Positions 1 to 41,891 are shown, counted from the stretch's first letter. The stretch: 64,000 nt of DNA from an uncultured Lachnospiraceae bacterium (GCA_964534905.1 CAZHPZ010000001.1:21719-85718), one strand, 5' to 3'. Numbers and translations: made by a program. The notes: generated by a model from the letters alone, not told the origin.

Positions 1-753
1 GATTACGAGCTTCTCCCCAATATGGCTATTATCGACGCAGATTTCCATATGAGTGCTCCGAGAGGACTTACGGCTGCGTCCGGTATAGACGCGGTAACTC
101 ACGCACTTGAGGCATATGCCGCAATGCTTGCAACCGATTATACAGACGGACTTGCGCTTCGCGCTCTTAAGATGATATTCGAATATCTTCCCAGAGCATA
201 CGATAACGGTCAGACAGACGTAGAGGCACGTGAAAAGATGGCTAATGCCGCAACCATGGCAGGTATGGCTTTCGCTAACGCATTCCTCGGCGTATGCCAC
301 TCAATGGCTCACAAGCTCGGTGCATTCCATCATCTTCCTCACGGCGTTGCAAACGCTCTTATGATAGAAGAGGTGCTCAGATTCAATGCAAGCGAGGCTC
401 CTGCAAAGATGGGTACATTCTCACAGTATGATCATCCTCATACACTTGCAAGATATGCCGAGGTTGCGGATTATCTCGGACTCGGCGGAAGCACGAACGA
501 GGAGAAGCTTGAAAACCTCATAAAGGCAGTAAACGACCTTAAGGCAAGAGTCGGAATAAAGGAGACTATCAAGGATTACGGTATTGACGAGGCTGACTTC
601 CTTGCACGTCTTGACGATATGACCGAGCAGGCGTTCGACGACCAGTGCACAGGTGCTAACCCCCGCTATCCGCTTATGAGTGAGATCAAGCAGATGTATC
701 TCAACGCATACTACGGAAAGCATTTTGTAGAAACCGAAAAGCCCACAGTTTGA
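1..753 (+). CDS. adhE: Bifunctional aldehyde/alcohol dehydrogenase AdhE, C-terminal Fe-ADH part (5' end lies outside the window)
   Basis: The frame is open from base 1. It carries the Fe-ADH block CHSMAHKLGAFHHLPHG and the AdhE-type C-terminus DDQCTGANPRYPLMSEIKQ. Confidence 0.9.
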   Translation, partial: DYELLPNMAIIDADFHMSAPRGLTAASGIDAVTHALEAYAAMLATDYTDGLALRALKMIFEYLPRAYDNGQTDVEAREKMANAATMAGMAFANAFLGVCHSMAHKLGAFHHLPHGVANALMIEEVLRFNASEAPAKMGTFSQYDHPHTLARYAEVADYLGLGGSTNEEKLENLIKAVNDLKARVGIKETIKDYGIDEADFLARLDDMTEQAFDDQCTGANPRYPLMSEIKQMYLNAYYGKHFVETEKPTV

Positions 754-5770: not shown

Positions 5771-6333
5771 TACAGCTGTCCGACGAGATCAAGACTCGGC
5801 TTGAGGGTTTCTTCACCGGGACGCCAGTTTGCGGGGCAGACCTGATCTCCGTGTGCGTGAACAAATTGGCATGCCTGAACCTTGCGGAAAAGCTCCTCTG
5901 CGTTTCTTCCGACGTTTCCGGCGGTTATCTCGTAGCCTACTATTTTCCCCTCGGGATTGACTATAAACGTTCCTCTTTCGGCGAGTCCCTCGGATTCTAT
6001 CAGAACCTCAAAATCTCTTGAAATGGCGTGAGTAGGATCGGCAAGCATGGGAAAGGTTATCTTTTTTATTCGTTCCGACGCGTCGTGCCAAGCCTTATGA
6101 ACGAAATGTGTGTCCGTGGATACGGAATATATTTCGCATCCGACTCCCTTGAATTTCTCATATTTATTTGCGAGATCCTCAAGCTCCGTGGGGCACACGA
6201 AAGTGAAATCGGCGGGATAGAAAAAGAATACGCTCCATTTGCCTAAGGTGTCGTCCTTGGTGACGGATTTGAATTCGCCTGCGTGATAGGCGTTTGCCTT
6301 GAAATTTGAAATTTCCTTATTAATGATTGACAT
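5770..6333 (-). CDS. ahpC: Alkyl hydroperoxide reductase subunit C (typical 2-Cys peroxiredoxin)
   Basis: Peroxidatic motif FFFYPADFTFVCPTEL and a resolving Cys near the C-terminus (HGDQVCPANW). Confidence 0.95.
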   Translation of the reverse strand: MSIINKEISNFKANAYHAGEFKSVTKDDTLGKWSVFFFYPADFTFVCPTELEDLANKYEKFKGVGCEIYSVSTDTHFVHKAWHDASERIKKITFPMLADPTHAISRDFEVLIESEGLAERGTFIVNPEGKIVGYEITAGNVGRNAEELFRKVQACQFVHAHGDQVCPANWRPGEETLKPSLDLVGQL

Positions 6334-9854: not shown

Positions 9855-9885
9855 ACTTGAGTAAATTAAATATCGGACTAAAGAA

Positions 9886-10031
9886 TAGTTAGAGGCGCGG
9901 TTAAGAATAGTAGCCTCCCGTAGACGCTCAAACGTTGATGACGGGGTGTGAAAGGCAAGACCGCCGAAGTGAATTTCGCTTTTGAGGGCGTTATTTGCTG
10001 GGCAAACGGGGAACACCCGCTTGACTGTCAC
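9886..10031 (+). promoter_or_regulatory. Lysine riboswitch (L-box) aptamer
   Basis: All the L-box islands I remember from Bacillus lysC are present in order: AGAGGCGCG, AGTAGCC, GTGAAAGG, CGCCGAAG, TTATTTGCTGG, ACTGTCA. Confidence 0.85.
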
Positions 10032-10084
10032 AATTTTTTGTGGAGTGCTGCTTTCGATATGGTGATCTTTTGCGGGATTATTGC

Positions 10085-17118: not shown

Positions 17119-17195
17119 TGGGATATAGCCAAGCGGTAAGGCACCAGACTTTGACTCTGGCATTTTCGATGGTTCGAATCCATCTATCCCAGCCA
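17119..17195 (+). tRNA. tRNA-Gln (anticodon UUG)
   Basis: Acceptor TGGGATA/TATCCCA, anticodon stem CCAGA/TCTGG with loop CTTTGAC, T-arm GATGGTTCGAATCCATC, encoded CCA. Confidence 0.95.
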
Positions 17196-17197
17196 AA

Positions 17198-17234
17198 ATG
17201 CACGAGGGGACAAAGTCCCCCTCGTGCATTTTTT
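17198..17234 (+). terminator. tRNA-Gln terminator
   Basis: ATGCACGAGGGGAC / GTCCCCCTCGTGCAT stem followed by TTTTTT. Confidence 0.85.
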
Positions 17235-17324: not shown

Positions 17325-17388
17325 GGTTCTGAATCCATCTATCCCGGTCAAAGAATGCACAAGGGGAAATCCCCTTGTGCATTTTTTT
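17325..17388 (+). repeat. Degenerate duplicate of the tRNA-Gln 3' half plus its terminator (att-like remnant)
   Basis: GGTTCTGAATCCATCTATCCCGGTCA aligns with GGTTC-GAATCCATCTATCCCAGCCA at 17171-17195. The hairpin ATGCACAAGGGG/CCCCTTGTGCAT with a T-run mirrors 17198-17234. No matching 5' acceptor strand lies upstream. Confidence 0.75.
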
Positions 17389-17418
17389 AAAATATGATGA
17401 CTTTTTGGGCTAAAACTA

Positions 17419-17446
17419 TTGAATTTTTTAAAAAAAGTAGTATAAT
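17419..17446 (+). promoter_or_regulatory. Promoter of structured RNA copy A
   Basis: TTGAAT, a 16-nt spacer, then TATAAT. The -10 is followed by the conserved AAATTTGCCAAAC, as in copy B. Confidence 0.6.
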
Positions 17447-17657
17447 AAATTTGCCAAACTAACTTAATAATTGTGACTTGCGGTATTATTTTATCTTTAG
17501 GGATAGTTATACCTTTTTTTGCACACACTTATCTTATGAACTTGATAAAATGCAAATTCCATCTGGTAAGTGTGGTAATACCCATTTCACAAAGAGTTAG
17601 TTTGGCGACTATCGGGGTTTGCGTTTTGGTGCGGTTGCTTCGGTAGCCGCACTTTTT
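17447..17657 (+). ncRNA. Unclassified structured RNA or leader, copy A (long irregular hairpin, conserved tail and terminator)
   Basis: 12-bp closing helix 17453-17464/17595-17606. Nested helices close on the conserved loop TTGATAAAATGCAAATTC. A UUCG-capped 10-bp terminator occupies 17629-17652 and is followed by a T-run. The helix covaries with copy B. Confidence 0.6.
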
Positions 17658-17718
17658 ATTTGAAGAACTATTGTTTTGTCTTATATGAGTGCAATTTATT
17701 TTGGAGGTATAGGACAAG

Positions 17719-20013
17719 ATGATTAAAAAATTCAATGTAGAACTTGAAGGACAGATTGAGTTTTATGAGCAGTATTTGAAAGTTGTTGATCCTAATTTAA
17801 CTTATGAAGATATTTTTCGTAATAATACGGATGGTATATTAAACGGAAATTTGTTAGAATTTAAGTTAAATATAACAGATCTTAATGCATGCTTGCTTCA
17901 AACAATAAAGTACCTTTCCGCTATGCGAATAAAGGGGGAACCGATACCGGCAAATATTCTATTGGTTTCATTAAATACCGCAACAATTTATTTATATCGT
18001 TCGGTAGACTACCTGAACTATATTGAAACGGTTTATGTTGGCGGAGCATCAAAAGAAAACAAAGGGTTTGTTGCTCATAGCTTTGCTAAAAAACTCGAAT
18101 ATTGTGAAAATCAGGCAGATGAATTTACTTTGATTCAATTGCTCAAAGAAAAAAATTATACCAAAATTCATATTGACGAAAATTGTATTGTCGGTTGGGC
18201 AGAGAAATATTATAAAGAAAATCCGCAGGCGAGAAAAGCCGATTTTATCGGTGATACCACGGGAAAGGTCAAGATTATCGGGGAAATACGTGATCCAAAC
18301 AAATTTAATGATTATATTTATGCCTACGATGGAAAAGATAATGTTCGTTTTCAATATCTTATGGATAAACTCAACGATACCATACAAAAGAAAAATTTGG
18401 GGGCTTTTTATACTCCCGAGCCTTATGCTGATAAATCCATTGAGTTGGTTCGTGAAGCAATTACCAGAGTTCCGCAAGGTAATGATTATATAATTTTGGA
18501 TCGTTGTGCGGGAACCGGAAATCTTGAGAAAAGATTGACGGACGAGGAGTTATCTCATTGTATTGTTTCAACTATTGAATATTATGAATACAAGGTTTTA
18601 CTTGAAGTATTAGGTAGCAAAGTCAGATATATTATTCCGCCTACGGAAAAAGAAGATACTTTTAATATGGGACTTGTTCGTGGTGCTGATGCACTATCGG
18701 AAGAATACATAAATAACCCTGTGATAAAACAGTATATTGATAATCCAAAATGCACAGTTATTTTATTCGAAAATCCACCTTATGCCGAAACTACCTCGTT
18801 GGAACATCAACGGACAAAGCAATCGGCAAATTCGTCGGGTTGGAAAAACACTTTTGTTGTTAAGGAGATGAAAAAGGAAGTTAAGGGAGCTGTTTCCAAT
18901 GATTTGGGAAATGCTTTCATTTGGTCTGCGTTTAAATACTATTTAAGGCAACCTACCGATAGTTATATTGTTTATTCTCCCGTTAAATATTGGAAGTCAC
19001 AACATTTGATAAACAAAGAATTTATAAAAGGGTTTGCTTTTAATCGTAAACATTTTCATACCAATATCGAAGCCTGCATTATGTGTGCATTATGGTCAAA
19101 TGTCGATAAAAATATTTCCTCAATAAAAATTACCGGTTATGATATTTTAAGCAACAATCAATTGAGTGATCCTATTACTTTATATGTCGATAGAATTTAT
19201 AAATTGTTTAGCACAAGGTATTATAATAAAAACAGCCTCGACGATGTATCTTTTGATGGGATTTTAACAGGACTTAACGGTTTGGAGACGGAAAATGGCG
19301 TTAAATGCCGAATTAAGCCATTATATTCCAAAGATATGTTGGGCTATTTAGTTGCAGATAGCGTTGGCTTCGATAATCCGGATGCAAAATCAAGTTTATT
19401 AGTTGCGGGCAGATATAATGGAAATGGTTGCTATATAAGGAAAGATGATTATCTTGACAAACTACCAATGTTTTGTGCAAGTAGATACATTACTTACAAT
19501 AGAGAGTGGACGGAAAGAGCAAGAATTATGAAATCTGCAGACGGTGCCAATAGATTTTTTGATGATGTTCAAAACGGAACGTTAAATCAGTTTTTGCTCA
19601 AATGTCTTGTTTTTACTTGCTTTGAAATGCAGAATCATATGAGAACATTTATAGGTTCCGACGCTCGTTTTTACAGAAACGAACTATGTCTTGATACTAC
19701 TAACGGGGAAACGTTAGCAAGCACTGATTTAAAAAGATTACGTGCTAACAATAAAGAAAAAGAAATGTTTGAACTTTGGAATTTGATTTTATCAAAAGCC
19801 AAGAGAACAAAAAATTACAATCCCGACTTAACATACGGAATCTACCAAATATTTACCGAACTTAATATTTTCACGCGTGACGAAATAACCGGTGTAAATA
19901 TACCCGATTATCCTGAATTGAACGGACATTTGAAATCATTAAAGCAAAAAGTCAAAGAATATTACAATTCGGAAATTGTCCCTGTTTTATTTGAATATGA
20001 ATTTTTGAAATAA
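17719..20013 (+). CDS. Single-chain Type IIG-like restriction-modification enzyme (N-terminal putative D-X8-E-X-K nuclease, gamma-class N6-adenine methyltransferase, C-terminal specificity region)
   Basis: Motifs in order: TDGILNGNLLEFK, LGAFYTPEPY, ILDRCAGTGNL (SAM motif I-like), ILFENPPYAETT (motif IV). Strongly AT-rich codon usage. Confidence 0.7.
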   Translation: MIKKFNVELEGQIEFYEQYLKVVDPNLTYEDIFRNNTDGILNGNLLEFKLNITDLNACLLQTIKYLSAMRIKGEPIPANILLVSLNTATIYLYRSVDYLNYIETVYVGGASKENKGFVAHSFAKKLEYCENQADEFTLIQLLKEKNYTKIHIDENCIVGWAEKYYKENPQARKADFIGDTTGKVKIIGEIRDPNKFNDYIYAYDGKDNVRFQYLMDKLNDTIQKKNLGAFYTPEPYADKSIELVREAITRVPQGNDYIILDRCAGTGNLEKRLTDEELSHCIVSTIEYYEYKVLLEVLGSKVRYIIPPTEKEDTFNMGLVRGADALSEEYINNPVIKQYIDNPKCTVILFENPPYAETTSLEHQRTKQSANSSGWKNTFVVKEMKKEVKGAVSNDLGNAFIWSAFKYYLRQPTDSYIVYSPVKYWKSQHLINKEFIKGFAFNRKHFHTNIEACIMCALWSNVDKNISSIKITGYDILSNNQLSDPITLYVDRIYKLFSTRYYNKNSLDDVSFDGILTGLNGLETENGVKCRIKPLYSKDMLGYLVADSVGFDNPDAKSSLLVAGRYNGNGCYIRKDDYLDKLPMFCASRYITYNREWTERARIMKSADGANRFFDDVQNGTLNQFLLKCLVFTCFEMQNHMRTFIGSDARFYRNELCLDTTNGETLASTDLKRLRANNKEKEMFELWNLILSKAKRTKNYNPDLTYGIYQIFTELNIFTRDEITGVNIPDYPELNGHLKSLKQKVKEYYNSEIVPVLFEYEFLK

Positions 20014-39309: not shown

Positions 39310-39338
39310 TTTACAAATGTCGATGATTGTGCTATAAT
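39310..39338 (+). promoter_or_regulatory. Promoter of structured RNA copy B
   Basis: TTTACA, a 17-nt spacer, then TATAAT, followed by GAAATTTGCCAAAC. Confidence 0.65.
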
Positions 39339-39559
39339 GAAATTTGCCAAACAAGTTGAATAAAAAAGCGGGTATATATTAGCATAACTATACCTTTTTT
39401 CATCATACCATTTTACAATTTGATAAAATGCAAATTCCGATGGAATGGTGAAAAAATTATATGATCATATGCTTGATTATATTGCTTTGCTTTCTTTAAC
39501 TTGTTTGGCGACAATGGAGTTTGCGTTTTTGTGCGCTGACTTCGTTGGCGCACTTTTTT
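39339..39559 (+). ncRNA. Unclassified structured RNA or leader, copy B
   Basis: Closing helix 39346-39357/39498-39509. Inner 18-bp helix 39395-39412/39439-39456 caps the conserved loop TTGATAAAATGCAAATTCC. The terminator occupies 39531-39553 and is followed by TTTTTT, ending 27 nt before the next ATG. Confidence 0.6.
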
Positions 39560-39586: not shown

Positions 39587-40804
39587 ATGAAAAAGAAACT
39601 TTTGTCCATGATTTTGGCGTTTCTTACTTTTTTGGTGTTGTCATCGTTGTTCGTATCCTGTATCATTTTGTATCCCTACGATTCAACATCGACAGACAAG
39701 AACGGACAGATTATTAAACCGAGTGAGAGTGATTCTGTAGTCGATAGTACAATAACTAAGTCGAGTAGTGAAAAAACAGATTCTAAATCTGATGATGATC
39801 CTGAATATGAGGCAATGGACTTCTTTAAGGAGGACGTAAGTCAGTGGGTAACTCTCGGTCAGTGGCAGAATATGAAGGTAGAGGTGTCTATGCTTGAGGT
39901 ACCCGAGGATTATATAGATAAACAGATAAATGTCGCGCTTTTCCAGAGCAGTCTCTATACAAAGGTAGAAGAGGGTACGGTTACCGACGGAGTTATATTT
40001 AACTTCGACTATACCGGATACATCAACGGAGTTCGCTTTGAGGGCGGCTCGGCAACGAATACGAGCGCATATATAGACGGAAATGATTTTATAACCGTTA
40101 CCACGAGCGGTACGGGAATGTTCATCGACGGCTTTGCACAGGGAACACTCGGCGCCAAGGTCGGAGAGACAATAGACGTTAACGTTACGTTCCCCGAGAA
40201 TTATTCCGAAAAGGATTATGCGGGCAAGGAAGCCGTTTTCAAGGTAAAGATAAATTATATCTATAAGACCGAGCTTACGGACGAAAACGCAAGCACTCTT
40301 TCAAGCAAGAAGTATACGACTGCGGAATCCTTCAGAGCATATCTTAAGGATTATATTGACGAGAGCCTTGAGGAGAATAATATAGCTACTCTTTGGGGGC
40401 AGATTGTTAAGAACGCTACGTTTATCGAGATTCCCGAGCAGGAATTCAACTATATGTTCAACGCTTTCAAATCAACCATAAATTCGCTTACCGCTTACGG
40501 TATTACATATGAGCAGGCGCTTCAGTATTACGGATTTGCGGACGAGGAGGAGCTTAAGGAGTACACCAATGACCTTATAAAGAGCGAGCTTGTCGTTTAT
40601 GCGATAATGCAGGCAAACGAGATCGACGCGTCCGATGAGGAAATTGCGGCGAAGCTTACCGAGCTTGCAAAGGAAGCCGAAAAAACAGAGGACGAATTTG
40701 TCGAGGCATACGGAATGGACTACGTTAAGCAGAAGGTAATGCTTGAAAAGACGGATGCTCTTGTACTCGGCTCAAACACATTCGTGCTTGAGACAGATAA
40801 ATAA
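39587..40804 (+). CDS. Trigger-factor-like FKBP-type PPIase lipoprotein
   Basis: Lipobox LFVSC. PPIase segment GVIFNFDYTGYINGVRFEGG...FIDGFAQGTLGAKVGE, plus a helical C-terminal domain as in trigger factor. Confidence 0.65.
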   Translation: MKKKLLSMILAFLTFLVLSSLFVSCIILYPYDSTSTDKNGQIIKPSESDSVVDSTITKSSSEKTDSKSDDDPEYEAMDFFKEDVSQWVTLGQWQNMKVEVSMLEVPEDYIDKQINVALFQSSLYTKVEEGTVTDGVIFNFDYTGYINGVRFEGGSATNTSAYIDGNDFITVTTSGTGMFIDGFAQGTLGAKVGETIDVNVTFPENYSEKDYAGKEAVFKVKINYIYKTELTDENASTLSSKKYTTAESFRAYLKDYIDESLEENNIATLWGQIVKNATFIEIPEQEFNYMFNAFKSTINSLTAYGITYEQALQYYGFADEEELKEYTNDLIKSELVVYAIMQANEIDASDEEIAAKLTELAKEAEKTEDEFVEAYGMDYVKQKVMLEKTDALVLGSNTFVLETDK

Positions 40805-41815: not shown

Positions 41816-41891
41816 TGGGGCATCGCCAAGCGGTAAGGCAACGGACTCTGACTCCGTCATTACCTAGGTTCGAATCCTAGTGCCCCAGCCA
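41816..41891 (+). tRNA. tRNA-Gln (anticodon CUG)
   Basis: Acceptor TGGGGCA/TGCCCCA, anticodon stem ACGGA/TCCGT with loop CTCTGAC, T-arm CTAGGTTCGAATCCTAG, encoded CCA. Confidence 0.95.

Follow-up and report, generated by a model that had tools for sequence, protein, structure and literature searches.

The question raised by the 64,000-nt stretch of DNA analysed here (the window; uncultured Lachnospiraceae bacterium, GCA_964534905.1 CAZHPZ010000001.1:21719-85718) is what purpose is served by a structured RNA that is encoded in it twice, each time between a promoter of its own and a protein-coding gene. The preliminary description of the window regarded this RNA as unclassified. We propose that each copy is probably a cis-acting transcription-attenuation leader, riboswitch-like in its design and fused to a strong conserved promoter. 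A cis-acting attenuator is preferred to a free-standing RNA gene because the tail of the RNA can pair alternatively with the apex of its terminator and with its own apical loop. This expression platform is an addition to what had been described before.

The promoter, helix and terminator positions reported earlier for copy A all agreed with the sequence, and the same layout was found at copy B; both copies are encoded on the + strand. The promoter scan placed the copy A promoter at 17419-17446 (-35 element TTGAAT, 17419-17424; 16-nt spacer; -10 element TATAAT, 17441-17446). The leader RNA extends from 17451 to 17657 and consists of a sensor domain reaching from helix P1 to a conserved GAC (17451-17609), followed by the tail and by the terminator. 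P1 is formed by 17453-17464 (GCCAAACTAACT) and 17595-17606 (AGTTAGTTTGGC), with the GAC directly after its 3' strand. Inside it come P2 (TTGTGA, 17471-17476, with TCACAA, 17587-17592), P3 (X1, GGTATTA, 17482-17488, with X3, TAATACC, 17576-17582) and P4 (17524-17531, CACACTTA, with 17567-17574, TAAGTGTG). X1 has an alternative partner, X2 (17508-17513), within a single-stranded island of UAUACC and a U-run (17508-17520) that is kept in A, in B and in the family consensus. The apical hairpin P5 (17538-17560; stem 17538-17544 with 17553-17559, loop AUAAAAUG) contains the segment called b (17547-17560, AAAAUGCAAAUUCC). The tail, segment c, occupies 17610-17628, and the terminator scan placed the intrinsic terminator at 17629-17657 (10-bp stem, UUCG loop, to 17652, and U-run 17653-17657); its apex, 17637-17645, is segment d. 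In copy B the promoter (TTTACA, 17-nt spacer, TG-TATAAT) lies at 39310-39338, the leader RNA at 39344-39559, P1 at 39346-39357 with 39498-39509, segment b at 39425-39438, tail c at 39513-39530 and the terminator, likewise capped by UUCG, at 39531-39553 with the U-run after it.

The variable end of P1 had been said to differ between the copies at four positions, with pairing preserved; three differing positions were found, and all three are compensated. To the four islands described as conserved between A and B a fifth, TATACCTTTTT, has to be added. The 19-mer TTGATAAAATGCAAATTCC of the loop island occurs exactly 2 times in the window, against 0.04 occurrences expected by chance. The predicted folding energy is -71.4 kcal/mol for copy A (z = -7.2) and -75.4 kcal/mol for copy B (z = -9.2), and in neither case was one of the 200 dinucleotide shuffles as good.

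Further homologues, on which the preliminary description had made its proposal depend, were found in number. Genomes, one per species, were scanned for the exact sequence TGATAAAATGCAAATTCC, which gave at least 120 loci; among the genome loci listed the whole module is present in about 98. These main-family members originate from human, ruminant and other guts, and the metagenome-assembled genomes (MAGs) in which they occur are labelled Eubacteriales, Clostridia, Christensenellaceae, Oscillospiraceae, Acutalibacteraceae, Ruminococcus, Subdoligranulum and similar, several of them carrying two or more leader copies. A covariance model (CM) was built from the hand-annotated P1-to-GAC domain (model R1) and recovers the family loci with 60-173 bits, as well as copy A (95.6 bits, E = 9e-19) and copy B (45.2 bits), while the reverse strand reaches 25-50 bits only. 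R1 also found three divergent copies that do not have the scanned 18-mer; two of them form tandems with a standard copy (L072, L105), and the third is a minimal variant (L117:645-752). Anchors taken from divergent variants were used in a second scan, of metagenomes (pattern TTTGGTAAAA, 35-65 nt, TTGTGTRRCAACAA), and at least 120 loci of a second subfamily were obtained. Its members, mostly from the human gut, are 155-170 nt long and form a plain rod without the P3 branch; they keep the promoter, tail and terminator logic of the main family. Among the IMG/VR contigs with the 18-mer, 7 of 11 were true members.

The helices named in the preliminary description proved to covary in 94-99 sequences. 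When 94 main-family members were aligned with MAFFT, pairing amounted to 98.9% over P1, P5 and the terminator together, with changes on both sides in 13 pairs; none of these measures was attained by any of 500 shuffles. In 99 sequences aligned to the CM, pairing amounts to 93.1% over the 46 pairs of P1, P2, the P3a hairpin, P4 and P5, of which 35 have changed on both sides; controls in which the pairing was slid gave 33-47%. P1 is paired in 99% of cells, with changes on both sides in 8 of its 12 pairs, and P2 in 90.5% of cells, with such changes in all 7 model pairs. All 10 pairs of the core helix P4 have changed on both sides, with 4-6 pair types per position, and the terminator helix is 98.7% paired with 5 such pairs. 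The support for P3 (GGTATTA/TAATACC, X1:X3) is real but weaker: 98 double-change cells were counted against 52 in shuffles, and 0 of 500 shuffles were as high. The alternative X1:X2 pairing barely exceeds shuffled values. The P5 stem alone is weak, -0.2 to -1.8 kcal/mol in the window copies (-0.2 in copy A). Since G-U pairs are conserved in P1, in the terminator and in the antiterminator described below, and since the CM scores of the reverse strand are low, the structure belongs to the RNA of the + strand. Beyond pairing, both subfamilies keep the loop UUUGRUAAAA, the AAUA internal loop, GCCA/UGGC and RAC at the base of P1 and GUGCG/CGCAC at the base of the terminator; all of these are candidate contacts for a ligand or a protein. 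A leader peptide or small open reading frame (ORF) was rejected: the indels in the variable regions are not multiples of three, as had been pointed out before, members of the second subfamily do not keep the AUG of the P5 loop, and a candidate GUG ORF that covers the terminator has its stop at a position that differs from member to member.

The argument for attenuation is carried by the tail. An antiterminator between the post-P1 tail UAUCGGAGU and the terminator apex ACUUCGGUA was first proposed by RNAalifold; in copy A it pairs 17610-17618 with 17637-17645, and in copy B 39513-39520 with 39539-39546. Its 9 bp are 96% paired in the alignment and 5 of the 9 pairs have changed on both sides, whereas slid controls are 24-54% paired and 0 of 500 shuffles reach its covariation score. 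One alignment column (283) covaries in three ways, both with column 242 in the antiterminator and with column 274 in the terminator. Across the different types of the leader the antiterminator is 9-11 bp long, continuous and without a bulge. The same tail has a second partner. Its part GGAGUUUGCGUUUU (17614-17627 in copy A) is complementary to AAAAUGCAAAUUCC, which comprises the P5 loop and the 3' strand of P5, over 14-15 bp in both window copies; this b:c pairing, an anti-antiterminator, spans 13-15 bp across the family, with duplex energies of -16.5 kcal/mol in copy A and -16.4 kcal/mol in copy B.

The first scan had fixed the loop sequence, so the divergent copies and the second subfamily served to test the b:c pairing. 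In the divergent types the loop side, the tail and the terminator apex differ strongly in sequence yet remain mutually complementary. In the type represented by L117, AAAAAGUGUAUCUC pairs with GAGAUACAUUUUU and AAAUGAGAU with GUCUCGUUU, and in b:c GUGUAUCUC faces GAGAUAC. The corresponding three segments of the L139 type are UCUCU, AGAGA and UCUCU. The antiterminator of the L164 type is a perfect 11-bp helix (AAAUGGGGCUA with UAGCCCCAUUU), and GGAG faces CUUC in L218. When duplex energies were calculated for 15 cluster representatives, cognate b:c pairs had a mean of -15.9 kcal/mol against -11.4 kcal/mol for cross pairs, and cognate c:d pairs -12.7 kcal/mol against -9.0 kcal/mol, with 0 of 10000 permutations as good. 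Pairing of b or d with the downstream ribosome-binding site was considered as well and discarded, as those sites do not vary with the b/c type.

The coupling of the leader to the promoter and to the next gene is tight. The family consensus of the promoter is TTGAcA, 17 nt, TGnTATAAT, and from the end of the -10 element to the GCCA of P1 the distance is exactly 6 nt in 80 of 92 members; this fixed distance implies that the transcript starts at P1. The next same-strand ORF with a ribosome-binding site begins at a median of about 26 nt past the U-run (within 40 nt in about 55 of 71 loci), and the spacing is similar in the second subfamily. The start codon is so near the U-run that there is no space for a separate promoter, so that the lack of a promoter between terminator and ATG, noticed earlier at copy A, holds for the whole family. 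The ORF that comes second after the leader is convergent in 41 of 70 loci, so most units would consist of the leader and one gene. Main-family leaders have unrelated housekeeping genes (e.g. those of GroEL, tRNA synthetases, GidA and SpoIVA) as their upstream neighbours, and no linked regulator gene was found among them. Thus an intrinsic terminator lies between promoter and gene without an intervening promoter, and a conserved antiterminator, kept in the divergent types, overlaps and excludes this terminator.

What the sequences and their covariation show are the helices, the competition among three pairings, the constant distance to the promoter and the close link with the gene behind; the default state and the regulated outcome that we infer would be as follows. 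Transcription would start at the first base pairs of P1, and the RNA folds into a long irregular hairpin made up of P1, the AAUA internal loop, P2, P3 with a small branch (in the main family), P4 and the weak, A/U-rich P5. Once P1 closes, the purine-rich tail c of about 20 nt would emerge, and the terminator after it. The tail has two mutually exclusive partners, b (13-15 bp, about -16 kcal/mol) and d (9-11 bp). When b captures c, the terminator would form, an RNA of about 200 nt would be released and the gene would be OFF. When b is unavailable, c would pair with d, the terminator could not nucleate, and readthrough would reach the ribosome-binding site and the start codon, which follow after another 15-35 nt, turning the gene ON. 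As P5 is far less stable than b:c, OFF should prevail at equilibrium, assuming that the tip of the rod can meet its base. The control point is likely to be the folding back of the rod or the access to the P5 loop. With nested folding, the terminator and antiterminator states are 0-3 kcal/mol apart, and the nested minimum-energy fold of copy B is already in the antiterminator state.

Several points weigh against this attenuation model. The CM alignment was fitted to the model structure and is thus biased towards the model. Segment b is invariant in the main family by virtue of the search pattern, hence the covariation of b:c is drawn from the second subfamily and from a small number of divergent copies; the duplex test comprises n = 15 representatives, of which one or two (L140; segment c of L162) are badly delimited. 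The b:c pairing is a long-range pseudoknot, which demands that a rod of about 30 bp folds back. Finally, the extra conservation of GUGCG/CGCAC and of UUUGRUAAAA could mean that the released RNA itself has a function.

The last point leads to the first of the alternatives, namely that the RNA is the product of a free-standing gene for a trans-acting small RNA (sRNA), 6S-like, base-pairing or protein-sponging, in which the terminator is the 3' end and the downstream genes are accidental neighbours or expressed by leak-through. The strong conserved promoter of its own, the efficient-looking terminator and the several copies per genome would suit such a gene, and so would the conservation of the P5 loop UUUGRUAAAA, the P1 base and the terminator base beyond the needs of pairing; the terminated form should, moreover, dominate at equilibrium. 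However, a ribosome-binding site and ATG follow on the same strand at the short median distance given above, with no room for a promoter, a covarying antiterminator over the terminator apex would serve no purpose, and the Rfam models of 6S and other sRNAs do not match, which makes an sRNA gene an improbable explanation.

It is an attractive idea, though one of still smaller probability, that the terminated RNAs act on each other in trans as in phage P4 immunity: the exposed b of a terminated RNA would pair with the nascent tails c of the same type and force termination, the types being specificity groups like those of heteroimmune phages. The order a, b, c, with a and c both complementary to b, recalls seqA, seqB and seqC of P4; b and c are identical in all main-family copies despite the divergence of the other helices; the phage-associated subfamily has several discrete b/c/d types; and one contig (L117) carries two different types. 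The present results, on the other hand, suit pairing in cis as well as pairing in trans, five interlocked segments (a:b, b:c, c:d, d:e) could alone explain the conservation, and in every terminated RNA its own c would already occupy b.

Some individual loci deserve mention in connection with the types. The L117 contig has the minimal variant at 645-752 (-) and a standard leader at 6046-6203 (-), the loop, tail and terminator apex of the minimal variant being wholly different, so two types coexist in one genome. Tandem leaders, about 100-120 nt apart, are present at L072 (1429-1595 with 1718-1878) and at L105 (2226-2386 with 1960-2123); the upstream leader has a variant P5 loop (GGUAAAAUCGCG or GGUAAAAGCGCA) and an unchanged tail. 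Such tandems could be two-step attenuators, or one of the leaders could have lost its former cargo. At L113:2859-3074 (-) the P3 region is enlarged by a tandem repeat of about 17 nt with ACAGGGATAACTGTATC-like units.

The genes placed behind the leaders, and thus under control of the proposed attenuators, are diverse. The gene behind copy A (17719-20013, +) codes for a 764-aa protein and had been labelled a restriction-modification gene. DRCAGTGN and NPPY motifs, N6-adenine methyltransferase-like, can indeed be recognised by eye, but the label is not backed by a family match, the Pfam, PADLOC and PDB-sequence searches with this protein all being empty. An orthologue stands behind the same leader in a Ruminococcus sp. 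MAG (L050:906-3197). Copy B precedes a gene (39587-40804, +) for a secreted or lipoprotein peptidyl-prolyl isomerase (PPIase) of the FKBP/trigger-factor-C kind, assigned by Pfam matches. Among the main-family products an N-terminal hydrophobic segment is present in 52 of 71 and a lipobox-like motif in 25 of 71; their Pfam matches comprise BspA-type leucine-rich repeats (LRR; 14 of 68), Listeria-Bacteroides repeats, dockerin, zinc-ribbon membrane proteins, DUF4352/DUF5067, Ltp and SLH, and three products are AbrB/MazE-like. In the second subfamily membrane-anchored PASTA proteins (8 of 40), DUF4839 lipoproteins, SLH, CAP, Ltp and other superinfection-exclusion families were found. The recurrent domains overall are BspA-type LRR, PASTA, DUF4839, SLH, Ltp (superinfection exclusion) and zinc-ribbon. 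The predicted regulon is a patchwork of single accessory genes, mostly for envelope proteins, on chromosomes and in phages.

Phage genes were the neighbours at all seven second-subfamily loci that were scanned (L141, L143, L154, L173, L191, L217, L225). Upstream of the cassette lie genes for DUF2800, Bro-N, MazG and the anti-Thoeris protein Tad3; downstream come two small ORFs and a conserved protein of about 929 aa with a C-terminal helix-turn-helix, 78-87% identical between loci. The leader-cargo cassette sits at a fixed place in related phage genomes while the cargo gene varies, and these cassettes look like cargo ('moron') genes at a moron hotspot. Mobility is suggested for the window copies as well. 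Orthologues of the copy B gene in related genomes (L001-L006) are located directly after rpmF and have no leader, from which it follows that the leader travels as a module and is not an old feature of one gene; an ancient conserved leader of the PPIase gene was rejected on the same ground. Both leaders have a tRNA-Gln gene nearby: tRNA-Gln(UUG) at 17119-17195 (+), 0.25 kb before copy A, and tRNA-Gln(CUG) at 41816-41891 (+), about 2.3 kb past copy B; the leader of L007 likewise adjoins a tRNA. Just 5' of copy A there is a repeat, about 155 nt downstream of the original and 91-94% identical to it, of the tRNA-Gln(UUG) 3' end and of the terminator hairpin of this tRNA (17176-17197 / 17331-17352 and 17218-17234 / 17371-17387). 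The duplication looks like an att-type scar, which suggests that leader A and the 764-aa gene arrived by insertion at the tRNA.

A module that precedes unrelated cargo in many contexts and phages, with no evident effector, might also be an unregulated expression cassette, in which the mRNA would owe its stability to the structured 5' end, and horizontally acquired genes would receive a fixed low readthrough through a leaky terminator. We hold this to be very improbable, for three compensated competing helices and a covarying rod of about 150 nt with conserved junctions exceed what a stabiliser or a leaky terminator needs. A DNA-level element, that is an inverted repeat resembling a miniature inverted-repeat transposable element (MITE) or a recombination site, would fit the long inverted-repeat architecture, the dispersed copies and the duplicated tRNA 3' end beside copy A, but it can practically be dismissed, since on the opposite strand A-C mismatches would stand in place of the conserved G-U pairs, the orientation of promoter and terminator is fixed, the reverse-strand CM scores are much lower, and the helices diverge by compensatory change between copies that are not near-identical.

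The preliminary description had found no known family to which the RNA could be assigned, and this was upheld by cmscan with Rfam 15 (4227 families), the models of 6S RNA, T-box and riboswitches included. At gathering thresholds the whole window gave a lysine riboswitch and three tRNAs only, neither leader copy being matched; the lysine riboswitch aptamer (9882-10058, +) is full length and scores 105 bits. A permissive scan of 17350-17750, at E up to 10, gave nothing better than E = 0.3 at copy A, and 12 other family loci scanned at E up to 5 had no recurrent Rfam match. The L20 leader (RF00558) appeared at 17562-17664 with 18.1 bits (E = 0.43) against a gathering threshold of 58.7; it was not reproduced in the 12 members, and it is also ruled out by context, as the genes behind the leaders are unrelated to infC-rpmI-rplT. 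Full-text literature searches with the conserved sequences and related topics returned no match, and the motif was absent from the first 200 of the 408 supplementary files of a human-microbiome structured-RNA catalogue (PMC8040213). The family appears undescribed, although it may have an unnamed entry in a large automated catalogue, the sequences of the phage catalogue (PMC10690425) lying outside the comparison. As to its kind, a transcription-attenuation leader, it is already known, and the novelty appears to be at the level of the family.

The signal to which the proposed attenuator would respond can be considered in terms of candidates. The conserved junction and loop nucleotides set among the covarying helices (AAUA, UAUACC with the U-run, UUUGRUAAAA) are indirect hints towards metabolite sensing, and a small-molecule ligand is a reasonable though tentative candidate. 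An RNA-binding protein is possible, a kinetic or physical input is rather doubtful, and a trans-acting RNA as effector seems unlikely. In a wider and more speculative view, the leaders might be RNA sensors of a new class, either orphan riboswitches or switches that answer to a protein or an RNA, placed over a mobile, horizontally exchanged regulon of surface and superinfection-exclusion genes of gut Clostridia and their phages, in which the b/c/d types might let released leaders cross-regulate in trans, like RNA-based phage immunity; we regard this as possible rather than likely.

Large, complex and widespread orphan leader RNAs are rarely found now. The present leader family is directly testable, as its examples run into the hundreds, its covariation is well supported and its three-way expression platform is readable. 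The proteins that it would control are mostly uncharacterised and belong to abundant but poorly studied gut Clostridia (Christensenellaceae, Oscillospiraceae, Acutalibacteraceae) and phages, and the signal, once found, would show what these bacteria sense when they remodel their surface. The module of promoter, leader and terminator looks portable and may be of use as a genetic part for Clostridia.

Among the known systems, 6S RNA shares with the leaders the size of about 200 nt, a long closing helix of the 5' and 3' regions, a promoter of its own and the occurrence of two paralogues per genome, as in Bacillus. The leaders, however, are coupled to a downstream gene, have an antiterminator and can exceed two copies per genome. 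The 6S models (RF00013 and related) gave no cmscan match, either at gathering thresholds in the window or at E up to 10 in 17350-17750, and the consensus does not have a central bubble. The CI RNA of phage P4 and the C4 RNA of P1/P7 resemble the leaders in that the middle one of three collinear segments is complementary to both flanks, in premature termination, in their association with phages and in their discrete specificity types. Those RNAs are processed, trans-acting and belong to proteobacterial phages, whereas the leaders are found in Clostridia, are most simply read as acting in cis and have no Rfam match to C4.

The c-di-GMP-I and -II riboswitches of Clostridia occur in many copies per genome before single surface, adhesin or envelope genes, often with terminator platforms, and in these respects they are similar to the new leaders. 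They were rejected as an identification because cmscan did not match them at copy A (E up to 10) or at the 12 other loci (E up to 5), and the long rod of the leaders with its pairing between apical loop and tail is an unrelated architecture. The T-box (RF00230) was rejected too: it had no Rfam match, the antiterminator of the leaders is continuous and without a bulge, and the downstream genes are not aminoacyl-tRNA or amino-acid genes. A relationship in design exists to the attenuation leaders of Firmicutes as a group, riboswitches as well as protein- or tRNA-dependent leaders (S-box, L-box, T-box, L20/infC, LicT-RAT, PyrR), which likewise have a promoter-proximal leader, mutually exclusive terminator and antiterminator, a sensor segment that sequesters the antiterminator strand and a gene directly after. 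The new leaders match none of these in Rfam sequence or structure, and they differ from them in features of their own: the part of anti-antiterminator is played by the apical loop of a long rod, by way of a long-range pseudoknot, instead of by the P1 3' strand; it is the terminator apex that the antiterminator takes hold of; and the regulon consists of accessory envelope and phage genes instead of a metabolic pathway.

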